Part shown: piece by piece, positions 2,364 to 3,432 of the stretch
Layout: every line of letters begins with the position of its first letter
Position numbering within the stretch: the first letter of the stretch is position 1
From: a virus
Lineage: Duplodnaviria; Heunggongvirae; Uroviricota; Caudoviricetes
DNA: 7,500 nucleotides
IMG/VR virus record: IMGVR_UViG_2802429241_000005
Strand: one strand, 5' to 3'
Translations under genes and position numbers: made by a program
The notes under the pieces: model-generated
What the model was told of the DNA's origin: nothing
Seen by the model: the letters and a program-made list of their open reading frames with translations, nothing else
Databases searched by the model: none

Positions 2364-2421
2364 TGTCACCCACGGAACAATTTTATCTGCTGACTTTCCA
2401 CCGTTAACGCGACACAACCTT
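2364..2421. repeat. Left copy of a perfect 58-bp inverted repeat
   Basis: tgtcacccacggaacaattttatctgctgactttccaccgttaacgcgacacaacctt is the exact reverse complement of 3375-3432, checked base by base; identity stops at both edges. Confidence 0.9.
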
Positions 2422-2484
2422 AATATGCCACAAAGGTTTTTGTTAACGAGCTGCATCTTTTTCTTTTCTGGGTGATGATTGTTT

Positions 2485-2490
2485 TATAAT
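2485..2490 (+). promoter_or_regulatory. Candidate -10 hexamer (TATAAT) for the 233-aa ORF; -35 weak
   Basis: Perfect TATAAT in AT-rich DNA about 100 nt upstream of ATG 2588; no good -35 at 17-bp spacing. Sequence-only guess. Confidence 0.25.
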
Positions 2491-2537
2491 AAACAAATAA
2501 CAACATTTATTCTTGTAAAAGTAATAATATCTCTCTG

Positions 2538-2558
2538 GCGATCGAATTTATTGATCGC
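2538..2558. promoter_or_regulatory. Operator-like palindrome GCGATC-n9-GATCGC with two Dam GATC sites
   Basis: 6-bp inverted arms separated by gaatttatt, 30-50 nt upstream of the ATG at 2588 in the leader of the orphan gene. Confidence 0.25.
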
Positions 2559-2587
2559 ATTTCAATTAAACAAATAAGGAGTTTTTT

Positions 2588-3289
2588 ATGCCAAAAATTA
2601 CCGGTGTTCTAGTGAGCCACCATGTTTTCGATATAAAAAAAGACATGGCTAATGGTTCATTCCCGAAAACATTATTTCCAGGTGCGACATTTCAGATGGT
2701 GGTTGACAATGATGTTGTCAATAATAATACGTTGGACTGGAGTGTTGTCACCAATGCGGGAGACAATTCGCTGACTGTAAATCAGGACGGCGTGGTGTCA
2801 TTTTCAAAAGATATTGATGAAAGCTGCATTGGTAAAACATTTGTTATTTTTGCGAAGGATAAAGCCACAGGGAAATTTGTGTCATCTTATTTAATTAAAC
2901 CTCATCGCTTCTTTAAGCCTCGTACCGCAACGTCGGACAGATTTGACAATGCATTGTTTTGGATTGAGGATAAAAAAGGGACTGTCCCGGCACGACGCGA
3001 TATCAATAATGTCCATTTCGATGAACTGACGGGAGAAATGTTTCATGATGTAAAACGTGAAGTGAATTCCGGGCTTTTTCAGGAATGGGGATTTTTACTA
3101 TTTAGTGGGTGGACTAATCCTGTACATAGTGATATTGGTAGTCTCGAATCAGAAATTTTCACTTTAGAAAATGACAGGATATTTATATCGACAGTCAACT
3201 CCCTCCCATACTCCAGAGATCTCCATGATGATATGGACTCCCAGCCTGCACAGGCTGCAGCGTTTTACGGGGAATCTGTTGTTTCCTGA
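2588..3289 (+). CDS. Hypothetical protein, 233 aa, orphan cargo gene inside the IR-bounded segment
   Basis: ATG 2588 preceded by AAGGAG at 7-nt spacing; TGA at 3287-3289. AT-rich compared with the int region. No signal peptide, no catalytic motif I recognise; N-terminal half looks beta-rich. Confidence 0.7.
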   Translation: MPKITGVLVSHHVFDIKKDMANGSFPKTLFPGATFQMVVDNDVVNNNTLDWSVVTNAGDNSLTVNQDGVVSFSKDIDESCIGKTFVIFAKDKATGKFVSSYLIKPHRFFKPRTATSDRFDNALFWIEDKKGTVPARRDINNVHFDELTGEMFHDVKREVNSGLFQEWGFLLFSGWTNPVHSDIGSLESEIFTLENDRIFISTVNSLPYSRDLHDDMDSQPAQAAAFYGESVVS

Positions 3290-3311
3290 TGTTTTAATGA
3301 GTTTTTAATAG

Positions 3312-3342
3312 TCTCCGTCTTTTTAATTTAAAGAGACGGAGA
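3312..3342 (+). other. Stable stem-loop downstream of the 233-aa ORF (possible terminator or RNA structure)
   Basis: 13-bp stem (tctccgtcttttt / aaagagacggaga, one G-U) with 5-nt loop aattt; no U-tract follows on either strand, so not a canonical intrinsic terminator. Confidence 0.3.
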
Positions 3343-3374
3343 TTACCGGCTCTGCAACGCGAAGCTCAGGAACA

Positions 3375-3432
3375 AAGGTTGTGTCGCGTTAACGGTGGAA
3401 AGTCAGCAGATAAAATTGTTCCGTGGGTGACA
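3375..3432. repeat. Right copy of the perfect 58-bp inverted repeat
   Basis: Exact reverse complement of 2364-2421. Confidence 0.9.

Follow-up and report, generated by a model that had tools for sequence, protein, structure and literature searches.

A 953-nt single-gene segment, enclosed by a perfect 58-nt inverted repeat within a decayed prophage, exists in nature in both orientations, as read from the assemblies of related prophages. The structure is most probably (we would put the probability at roughly two in three) a scar left by rearrangement, at which rare, unprogrammed homologous inversion can occur, rather than a dedicated switch or a transposon.

The inverted repeat and its prophage setting

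The window, i.e. the whole stretch of DNA that was analysed (7,500 nt), was searched for repeats. This search revealed arms at 2364–2421 and 3375–3432 that are 58 nt long, 100% complementary and separated by a 953-nt spacer, exactly as the original prediction had described them. No other inverted repeat in the window comes close to this length (the second longest is 22 nt at 73%), and by our own arithmetic a perfect 58-mer pair would be expected by chance in 7.5 kb with a frequency of ~1e-27. The abrupt loss of identity predicted for both edges holds for the inner edges only: beyond the outer edges a weaker inverted similarity continues, and BLAST extends the pair to 2355–2421 / 3375–3442. The features referred to below are as follows (position, strand, description; L numbers denote related loci).

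2026–2373, minus: humD remnant (P1 UmuD′-like, S24), codons ~35–82 followed by frame drift
2364–2421, unstranded: left (humD-side) arm, 58 nt, 100%; its minus-strand reading continues directly into the humD remnant
2422–3374, plus: interior (AT-rich leader, ORF233, hairpin), inverted in sister prophages; P-end 2422, T-end 3374
2485–2490, plus: TATAAT, best −10 candidate for ORF233, read directly from the sequence; −35 poor
2538–2558, plus: GATC-containing leader hairpin (GCGATCGA / TTGATCGC), ΔG −10.4, z −3.2
2576–2581, plus: Shine–Dalgarno sequence AAGGAG, 6 nt before the ATG
2588–3289, plus: ORF233 (233 aa), resembling the cell-binding tip of invasin/intimin; Ig-like D4 domain
2628–2634, plus: A7 tract, ORF233 codons 14–16 (A8 in L019, L021 and L022)
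3309–3345, plus: stable 17-bp hairpin 3′ of ORF233, ΔG −25 kcal/mol, z −5.1
3375–3432, unstranded: right (hot-side) arm, exact reverse complement of the left arm
3433–3487, plus: second humD-like fragment, inverted and degenerate (about codons 36–52), abutting the hot stop codon
3481–3623, minus: 3′ part of hot/theta, which encodes a DNA polymerase III theta homologue and is interrupted at 3623 by the end of an IS3-family element
3624–4878, minus: IS3-family insertion sequence (orfA 4494–4805, orfB 3631–4458); outer end approximate

The window is a decayed lambdoid prophage adjoining fliE in Escherichia marmotae-type genomes; the prophage family as a whole is lambdoid and found in non-coli Escherichia, and the cassette lies in the hot-X-humD slot of its early-left operon. 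On the minus strand the order is IS-cut hot (theta), the cassette, the humD remnant, a regulator, xis and int. The hot gene shows 86–88% nt identity to hot of P1/RCS47, and PF06440 was recognized among the called genes. A minus-strand frame to the right of the cassette was also considered as the end of an IS6-type transposase and rejected, the region consisting of the hot/theta 3′ end and the inverted humD scrap. The prophage integrase, a tyrosine recombinase, is encoded 1.25 kb from the segment and is truncated in the window (370 vs 434 aa), so that with hot cut by an IS and humD a pseudogene the operon of this lineage is already dead. As predicted, ORF233 opposes this leftward (minus-strand) operon: it lies on the plus strand and is antisense to it. 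No known RNA families were detected in 2200–3650, and no description of this locus was found in the literature searched.

The interior segment and ORF233

Several components that had been claimed for the interior were recovered: a strong RBS, a GATC palindrome (here within the leader hairpin), a single ORF of 233 aa and a hairpin after it, all at the positions listed above. The claim of AT-rich, promoter-like DNA fared less evenly. The region is indeed AT-rich (GC 0.30–0.34 at 2400–2700 vs 0.48–0.54 in the flanks; 0.30–0.43 over the interior vs ~0.5 in the flanks), but a consensus scan of the plus strand upstream of ORF233 returned no sigma-70-like site, and the TATAAT at 2485–2490, which falls inside a block common to paralogous loci, is not a confident promoter because its −35 is poor. 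In the same type of scan each arm contains one outward-facing promoter-like site. The hairpin at 3309–3345, which is kept in the paralogous loci L012 and L013, may act as a weak terminator at best, since no T-run follows it. In the region of the leader hairpin, relatives carry SNPs at 2535 and 2539. No LexA box of the kind present in P1 lxr/humD was found in 2374–2587.

The interior has no match in 50,697 phage records. Its part 2476–3344 is 79% identical to the arm-less loci L011–L014, in which no inverted repeats surround the paralogous genes. In phage Chlobot and E. coli 97.3 the neighbouring genes are present and the cassette gene is absent. A unit with its own RBS and hairpin and a low GC content, placed between conserved phage genes and absent from Chlobot and E. 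coli 97.3, looks like a moron, even though the scan yielded no confident promoter.

ORF233, a stand-alone protein that resembles the invasin/intimin tip, is very rare and restricted to non-coli Escherichia. It matches Pfam Invasin_D4 (2e-7) and, by sequence, the PDB invasin entry 1cwv (3e-7); Foldseek aligned its model with 1cwv (3.7e-9) and with intimin 1f00 (1.8e-4) over ~235 columns. A 5-sequence alignment gave an AlphaFold model with pLDDT 41, too poor for use; from 10 sequences the N-terminal domain alone was modelled usably, the C-terminal half having pLDDT <50. No signal peptide was seen by eye and no PHROG family matched. Only 7 representatives were present among 1.84 billion proteins, and variants of ORF233 form a cluster of 36 sequences. 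In L019, L021 and L022 the A8 tract cuts ORF233 to 21 aa. In Escherichia sp. E3659 a paralogue precedes the gene of a Scabin-like ADP-ribosyltransferase. ORF233 was also compared with P1 Lxr, and homology was rejected (BLASTP E 0.32).

Origin of the arms and orientation in relatives

By alignment, both arms in their outer part, together with the DNA flanking them, correspond to the 5′ part of humD, in opposite orientations. On the left, the humD remnant has 85% aa identity to P1 HumD aa 35–82 (tblastn, 5e-25), matches the PHROG UmuD-like family (3e-12) and, as far as 2334/2368, is 92–94% identical in nt to the DNA of E. coli phage Chlobot and of E. coli 97.3; it is a pseudogene from which the first ~27 codons are absent. 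BLAST homology to HumD-family genes enters the left arm and reaches 2380, tblastn HSPs in L027 and L022 take in two arm codons, and the outer ~24 nt of the left arm are scrambled humD codons ~28–36. On the right, the fragment at 3433–3487 prolongs the inverted repeat outward at ~65–70% identity in the alignments, and CCATCACCCTGAGG in the outer flank matches P1 humD nt 107–121 in register, with a local-alignment score that 12/2000 shuffles reached. The right arm has the short form in all fliE-site loci and is 92 nt long in L018, L022, L024 and L026. These longer arms of relatives (up to 92 nt) contain more humD sequence; the insert matches P1 humD nt 82–100 at 16/19 positions, a score likewise reached by 12/2000 shuffles.

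The humD derivation does not extend to the whole repeat: the inner 34 nt of the arm (2388–2421 on the left) match nothing, humD included, and their similarity to P1 lxr-humD DNA was not above that of shuffles. These 34 nt are perfect in every arm read except one (L042, a single SNP), the near-identity of the arms as a whole spanning 58–92 nt. Divergence is 0% within the arms vs roughly 30–35% immediately outside the right arm; this contrast is unlike a simple old duplication and requires either arm-limited conversion or mosaic replacement of the left flank.

Species-representative genomes do not contain the exact 58-mer, and relatives were therefore found with an inner-arm 25-mer. At 16/16 fliE-site loci read, ORF233 opposes the operon just as it does in the window; in this sample similar places were collapsed by gene content and could conceal inverted copies. 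The same interior (~98% identical) runs the other way in six complete loci from sister prophages whose int/xis module is different; the matching junction is also seen in a seventh inverted locus, which is cut by an IS. Escherichia sp. E1V33 has the inverted state, and IMG/VR contig 2913128013_000003 has the window's state with one long arm. The inverted set comprises L019, L020+L024, L021, L022, L023, L025 and L027; the window, L003–L010, L018 and L035–L044 are non-inverted. Both states were thus read from assemblies, between lineages and not within one.

The two states share the hot flank, the humD flank and both arms (97–99% identity right up to the arms), and only the direction of the interior differs, which is the signature of inversion between the arms regardless of the molecules involved. 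Moreover, the long hot-side arm variants remain with the hot flank in either state (L018 vs L022/L024), and such flank-linked variants map the crossover, on sequence comparison, to the arms' inner 34 nt. The original prediction of a recombination-driven invertible segment was sound insofar as the opposite orientation occurs between the same arms in relatives, but a programmed version of it was not borne out, as neither an invertase (in the window and 264 kb of related loci) nor a hix pair was found. Within the fliE-site lineage, the two findings that it had named as speaking against it, a single orientation in related strains and derivation of the 58-mer from a duplicated flanking gene, are largely what was observed.

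A single historical flip would account for the data: orientation follows prophage lineage, and the SNP table is consistent with one inversion on the branch leading to the inverted group. The interior of the window type differs from that of L018 at 19/953 positions and the humD flank at 5/900, which hints at extra arm-bounded exchanges, and arm recombination may therefore exceed what is meant by “rare”.

We propose that a foreign gene unit (a moron) came to lie in the hot-X-humD slot, bracketed by an inverted duplication of the decayed 5′ part of humD plus 34 nt for which no match was found. The arm copies (34–92 nt of near-identity) would be long enough for homologous recombination via RecA or a phage Red/RecT-type system; the related phage Chlobot has genes for an exonuclease and a RecT-like protein nearby. 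The minimal processing segment for homologous recombination is ~25–30 nt; the repeats exceed it and the crossover maps inside them. At least one crossover within the inner 34 nt would have flipped the 953-nt interior, giving two states: in one, that of the window and of all fliE-site prophages read, ORF233 opposes the operon, and in the other, that of the sister prophages with the other int/xis module, it is co-directional with the operon. Both arms of the window lineage would have been shortened to the same 58-nt form, probably via gene conversion between them, and the orientation would have become fixed. The recombination pathway, the initial origin of the duplication and the gene conversion are the steps that we infer.

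Alternative explanations and known systems

The arms might instead be kept identical by frequent homologous recombination and form a biologically used switch, flipping at a measurable rate within clones without a dedicated recombinase and placing ORF233 sense or antisense to the early-left operon, so as to tune ORF233 or xis/int via read-through or transcriptional interference. Both states exist, each arm carries an outward-facing promoter-like site, and the window is more diverged from L018 in the interior than in the flank; the window-lineage arms also look homogenised, as they share one short form down to the CCGTGGG variant, whereas the close relative L018 has a long hot-side arm. However, orientation tracks lineage and one event is enough, the 16 fliE-site loci share a single state, and L042 retains an unconverted SNP in one arm. 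Since the operon of the window lineage is dead, little is left there to regulate, and we consider such a switch unlikely.

It is likewise improbable that the two states never interconverted in place and were assembled separately, by recombination between phages with oppositely oriented humD fragments, the arms being mosaic joints. This would agree with the restriction of the inverted state to prophages with a different int/xis module, with the humD flank of L019, unrelated beyond ~500 nt, with the end of E. coli phage homology exactly at the arm edge (2368), and with the disagreement between interior and flank trees. Against it stands the likeness, noted above, of flanks and arms in both states up to the arms, the interior alone being reversed.

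We regard as very unlikely an invertible element whose flipping is programmed and carried out by a site-specific recombinase, either a serine invertase of the Hin/Gin/Cin/Pin type or a Fim-type tyrosine recombinase, perhaps encoded elsewhere in the genome or in an intact prophage. The existence of both orientations and a crossover within one defined 34-nt stretch would be expected of such an element, and one hix-like half-site, GGTTTTTGTTAA, lies at 2435–2446, 14 nt inside the left arm (11/12, equalled by 11/300 shuffles). This half-site, however, has no inverted partner near 3340–3440, the best full site scores 16/24 vs a mean shuffle maximum of 15.2, and no paired hix-like sites were found at the segment boundaries. 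Apart from the 8-bp CGTTAACG, the inner 34 nt show no dyad symmetry by eye. No resolvase/invertase domain was detected by Pfam in nine ORFs of the window, nor any Hin-like sequence in 264 kb comprising the window and related loci (tblastn with Hin). The segment has no dedicated tyrosine recombinase beside it: the sole one nearby is the prophage integrase, which is of a different type in the inverted-state group. A fimS-type promoter reading out into a flanking gene was not what we found either, the flanking genes being pseudogenes (the humD remnant and IS-cut hot). As the promoter region, ORF233 and the hairpin are all inside the segment, promoter and gene flip together and flipping would connect or disconnect nothing. 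Programmed switching would have little regulatory logic, and nothing supports it.

The suggestion that the arms are the terminal inverted repeats of a small non-autonomous mobile element, with ORF233 as cargo, appears highly improbable. Long perfect repeats around one self-contained gene of foreign composition are what gave rise to it, but target-site duplications are lacking: the flanks GGTAATGGC (before the left arm) and ATCCATCAC (after the right arm) are inverted-similar and not direct repeats. The outer part of each arm is sequence of the flanking gene humD rather than an element-specific end, the interior contains no transposase, and homologues of the cargo occur at other loci without arms. 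Among the collections searched, the arm was found at this prophage position only. It had no match in 5,426 E. coli genomes or in phage records, and its 25-mer had none in metagenome contigs; the 2 matches among 185,579 species representatives and the 7 IMG/VR contigs all represent this locus.

A mis-joined or chimeric contig is effectively refuted, because many independent assemblies, among them the complete chromosome CP056159.1 and a 3.5-Mb scaffold, show the structure without a single base changed. No point speaks for it beyond the general tendency of short-read assemblers to break at repeats (ten index blocks consist of contigs <2 kb only).

A scar open to rare homologous inversion, the reading that we prefer, has counterparts among known systems. 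RecA-dependent inversions between inverted repeats (rrn operons, IS copies, prophages) occur in enterobacterial chromosomes. The present case resembles them in the crossover within inverted homologous copies, in the lineage-dependent orientation and in the arm variants that stay with their flanks; it differs in scale (~1 kb vs tens to hundreds of kb) and in its repeats of 34–92 nt, near the lower limit for efficient recombination. The Hin/Gin/Cin/Pin systems also have a ~1-kb segment between inverted repeats and two orientations, but these have 26-bp sites, an adjacent serine invertase, an enhancer and a promoter or gene 3′-end swap, none of which is present here. The case teaches caution: when a self-contained gene is enclosed by a long perfect inverted repeat, the arrangement mimics a switch or a transposon until relatives reveal a duplicated scrap of a neighbouring gene, and orientation that varies between prophage lineages instead of switching.

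Lambdoid morons are independent promoter-gene-terminator units (e.g. lom, bor and the HK97 morons), a description that reportedly goes back to work of 2000 and 2012. The cassette is like them in having one gene with an RBS and a hairpin of its own, a lower GC content and a protein of non-phage function, and in being absent from close phages. We know of no classical moron that is bracketed by long inverted repeats or that occurs in both orientations at one site. The cargo is of minor independent interest as a rare invasin/intimin-tip-like protein whose paralogue is paired with a Scabin-like ADP-ribosyltransferase. Its Invasin_D4 match and the full-length alignment of its model to 1cwv and 1f00 liken it to the Yersinia invasin D4-D5 and intimin D2-D3 tips; in contrast to these proteins, it stands alone, lacking an outer-membrane anchor and a repeat stalk as well as any evident signal peptide.

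A close parallel in layout is the hot-lxr-humD region of P1, one of eight regions of high variability in P1-like elements (PMC9603915). The order hot> <gene humD> mirrors hot> <lxr humD> of P1, with the middle gene on the opposite strand and divergent from humD, and the window retains 86–88% nt identity to P1 in hot and 85% aa identity to HumD residues 35–82 in the humD remnant. Unlike P1, the window has a middle gene unrelated to Lxr, no LexA box and a humD pseudogene, and its module lies inside a lambdoid early-left operon; no inverted duplication surrounds P1 lxr. The locus would thus offer a small, clean example of inverted duplications at a variable cargo slot (hot-X-humD, common to P1-like elements), of mosaic boundaries that coincide with such repeats, and of repeats of 34–92 nt that suffice for rare inversion.

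The inverted repeat and its prophage setting

A repeat search of the window identified, as originally predicted, a perfect 58-nt inverted repeat with arms at 2364-2421 (humD side) and 3375-3432 (hot side), 953 nt apart. The second-best inverted pair in the window falls far below it, and a chance origin of such a pair within 7.5 kb is ruled out. The abrupt end of identity that had been claimed for both edges holds for the inner ones, whereas beyond the outer ones inverted similarity persists at a lower level. Every enclosed feature of the original prediction (233-aa ORF, RBS, GATC hairpin, strong hairpin and AT-rich DNA) is present. 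On its minus strand lies the left end of a lambdoid prophage, and the window is organized as follows.

1-1113, minus strand: integrase (Arm-DNA-bind_2 and Phage_integrase domains)
1159-1452, minus strand: DUF1233 excisionase
minus strand: two small phage genes (phrog_1229; phrog_536 regulator)
2026-2373, minus strand: UmuD-like remnant (humD)
2538-2558: small hairpin with GATC, in the leader of ORF233
6 nt before the ATG of ORF233, plus strand: RBS AAGGAG (read from the sequence)
2588-3289, plus strand: ORF233, 233 aa (ORF call)
3309-3345: strong hairpin (dG -25 kcal/mol, z -5.1), not followed by a T-run
3481-3623, minus strand: 3' part of the hot (theta) gene, right of the cassette

The GC content is 0.30-0.43 within the interior, compared to about 0.5 in the flanks. 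The predicted promoter-like DNA stood only in part: the region is AT-rich and contains a perfect TATAAT (2485-2490), but this is paired with a poor -35, and a consensus scan identified no sigma-70-like site on the plus strand upstream of ORF233. Each arm also contains an outward-facing promoter-like site (2380-2407, minus strand; 3389-3416, plus strand; TTAACG, 16 nt, TAAAAT; 9/12), which would read into the humD remnant or toward hot in either interior orientation.

The hot fragment shares 86-88% identity with its P1 and RCS47 counterparts and ends at 3623, where an IS3-family element (orfB, 3631-4458; orfA, 4494-4805) cuts the gene; beyond the element, AT-rich DNA is followed by a gene for a YadA-type trimeric autotransporter adhesin (6130-7500, plus strand) with head, stalk and anchor domains. 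The adhesin gene contains four tandem 78-nt units (repeats 6799-7188); its product has 454, 428 or 457 aa among relatives, and the gene is split in L005 (L-numbers denote comparison loci from other genomes or contigs). The sources of the exact ORF233 protein are named Escherichia marmotae or Escherichia sp., and in these genomes the whole block adjoins fliE; the cassette was found in none of 5,426 complete E. coli genomes. The integrase ORF has 370 aa in the window, L005 and L008, compared to 434 aa in L006, L007, L009, L036, L041, L042 and L044; the window copy is truncated.

Two orientations of the enclosed segment

The inner arm sequence, scanned against IMG/VR and the species-representative genomes, led to related prophages. 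The interior end on the promoter side (window 2422) was designated P and that on the hairpin side (window 3374) T; the outer sequences were termed humD flank and hot flank. In state W, P lies beside humD and ORF233 is antisense to the operon; this arrangement occurs in the window, eight NCBI loci (L003-L010), the IMG/VR contig L018 and seven more fliE-site loci (L035, L036, L038, L039, L041, L042 and L044). In state I, P lies beside hot and ORF233 points the same way as hot, humD, xis and int (L019, L020+L024, L021, L022, L023, L025 and L027, the last from Escherichia sp. E1V33). E. whittamii (L026) has a state-I junction on the hot side, while an IS cuts its interior. Since flanks and interiors of the two states are 97-99% identical right up to the arms, the states are one segment turned round and not two unrelated insertions.

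The orientation also follows the prophage backbone. L018 shares int and xis with the window; the state-I loci match the window only from 1441 on, and therefore carry another int/xis module. In state-I prophages, too, an IS3-family end replaces the 5' end of hot (window 3600-3667; L027 1012-1060), but IS homology stops there at window 3667, so that the shared part is a remnant only; the window has the complete IS. In L044 hot is entirely absent and the hot-side flank diverges after ...CTTGCGCATC (L044 about 2700-2750).

The arms occur in a short form of 58 nt (window) and a long form of 92 nt, the latter longer by 34 nt that a CAGCA direct repeat encloses. Of the long variants, that of the hot side (TGTTT.TT.ATACAGCT) accompanies the hot flank in either state (W in L018; I in L022 and L024), and that of the humD side (TGGCTTTTCATGCAGCC) remains with the humD flank. 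Because these variants keep to their own flanks, the exchange is placed within the inner 34 nt of the arms, which are the same in every arm read except for one SNP in L042. This is a T-to-A change in the humD-side arm (57/58 between arms; L042 about 3771-3828); L042 also retains 12 nt of humD that were lost from the window.

Among the interior SNPs tabulated, 16 set the window type apart from all others, 4 fall on the state-I stem and 3 are private to L018. One inversion on the state-I stem explains the distribution of orientations. The window and L018 differ at 19 of 953 interior sites, compared to 5 of 900 in the humD flank, and in the window lineage the hot-side arm is now identical to the humD-side short arm, linked SNP included. 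The latter looks like conversion between the arms, and the divergence contrast together with the identical short arms suggests extra exchange at the arms.

The predicted invertibility is thus upheld by the two orientations, but the flip tracks lineage, with no sign of a dedicated mechanism. A programmed recombination-driven switch was rejected. No serine invertase was found among the window ORFs scanned or in 264 kb of related loci, and the sole tyrosine recombinase is the prophage integrase, truncated in the window and of another type in the inverted group. Hix-like sites do not occur as a pair: GGTTTTTGTTAA at 2435-2446, 14 nt inside of the left arm, matches the Hin/Gin half-site consensus at 11/12 positions (13/14 to the 14-bp Hin repeat with the preceding AA), but an inverted partner at the other end is absent. 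ORF233, its RBS, likely promoter and hairpin all invert as one, and therefore the flip neither connects nor disconnects a gene. Moreover, the surrounding operon is already dead in the window lineage (hot cut, humD a pseudogene, int shortened). No LexA box (2374-2587) or Rfam family (2200-3650) was identified.

The suggestion that the arms are termini of a mobile cassette was likewise rejected. Target sites are not duplicated (the sequences bordering the arms resemble each other in inverted, not direct, orientation), the interior ORFs include no transposase, and the arm is confined to one locus (no arm matches in the E. coli genomes, phage records and metagenome contigs searched; two species representatives and seven IMG/VR contigs match, all at the same prophage position). 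Cargo homologues at a different chromosomal locus (70% aa identity; 79% nt identity over window 2476-3344), known from Escherichia sp. E3659 and E2661 and from two read-set assemblies, have no flanking inverted repeats.

The repeat itself is real and the segment was flipped during evolution, with no indication of mobility. Both states are known from comparison between lineages.

humD sequence in the arms

The window is 92-94% identical to E. coli phages (Chlobot; a prophage of strain 97.3) over the small genes and the UmuD-like remnant, and this homology ends at 2334 (Chlobot) and 2368 (strain 97.3), the left arm edge. Residues 35-82 of P1 HumD match the remnant with 85% identity (tblastn), identifying it as humD, which in P1 is a UmuD'-like gene. 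HumD-family genes of E. coli P1-like plasmids align to 2380, 17 nt inside the left arm. In long-arm relatives, the tblastn HSP with P1 HumD takes in two arm codons, and a second, weak HSP lies just upstream ('FMQPAD' vs P1 'FMRAAD'); the additional long-arm segment agrees with P1 humD nt 82-100 at 16/19 positions, a score reached by 12 of 2000 shuffles. The outer flank of the right arm (plus strand) resembles P1 humD nt 107-121 (CCATCACCCTGAGG against CCATCACCGTGAGG) in the register expected were humD to follow the arm, and even without the register constraint no more than 12 of 2000 shuffles attain this score. In multiple alignments the humD similarity outside the right arm reaches about 3487, up to the hot stop codon.

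Because humD sequence continues into the arms and outer flanks, the repeat is read as humD codons ~28-52 together with X34 (the inner 34 nt of each arm) in inverted duplicate, one duplicate being continuous with the humD remnant and the other lying backwards against hot. X34 had no match anywhere compared, including P1 lxr-humD DNA. The arms are thus partly scraps of the neighbouring gene, and the 58-mer proved to be part of a duplicated flanking gene, an outcome that the original prediction had counted against itself.

In E. coli O68:H12 strain 97.3 (L002 3300-5168) a group II intron (ltrA) interrupts the humD homologue on its 5' side, another sign that the slot upstream of humD gathers insertions.

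The cargo gene and comparison with P1

ORF233 matches Pfam Invasin_D4 (2e-7) and, by sequence, Yersinia invasin 1cwv (3e-7). Its family is tiny, with 4 clusters in a set of 5.8 billion proteins and 7 representatives in one of 1.84 billion, and no PHROG family matched. An AlphaFold model based on a 10-sequence alignment reached confident pLDDT values (about 80-93) over residues 1-115 and was poor past residue 130; the top Foldseek matches, over about 235 columns, were invasin (3.7e-9) and the intimin C-terminal fragment 1f00 (1.8e-4). The modelled protein looks like a stand-alone invasin/intimin receptor-binding tip; no membrane anchor was seen, nor a signal peptide by eye.

The 70%-identical paralogue loci comprise E3659 (L011 6001-8034), L014 299-2335 and L012 5772-6471. 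In E3659 and in one read-set assembly, the gene immediately downstream of the paralogue encodes a 424-aa Scabin-like ADP-ribosyltransferase, which suggests a possible partner role. A XerC-like integrase adjoins this locus; E2661 has a frameshifted paralogue and lacks the toxin gene.

Of 16 loci, 13 have an intact ORF233. The other three, L019, L021 and L022, have A8 instead of the A7 tract at 2628-2634 (codons 14-16), truncating the product to 21 aa. The interior of L021 is otherwise identical to those of L023 and L025, both A7, so that the change is recent and recurrent, either slippage or a homopolymer sequencing error.

Homologous recombination between the inverted copies, via RecA or a phage exonuclease/RecT-type system, would be the most economical mechanism for the inversion; the related phage Chlobot encodes such a system nearby. 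Hypothetically, the inverted duplication of one breakpoint region could have been left by an inversion with staggered breaks or by a replication template switch. The left flank may later have been replaced by recombination with an E. coli-type phage, which fits the contrast between the perfect arms and their ~30-35% diverged outer continuation, and would account for homology to E. coli phages ending exactly at the arm.

The layout hot> <gene humD> of the window is the same as hot> <lxr humD> in P1, and the hot-lxr-humD region has been reported to rank among eight highly variable regions in phage-plasmids of the P1 type (PMC9603915). ORF233 thus sits in a slot already known for cargo, yet it shows no relationship to P1 Lxr and, unlike the window, P1 has no repeat at the lxr region. 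The locus is best read as homologous inversion between inverted duplicates around a moron.
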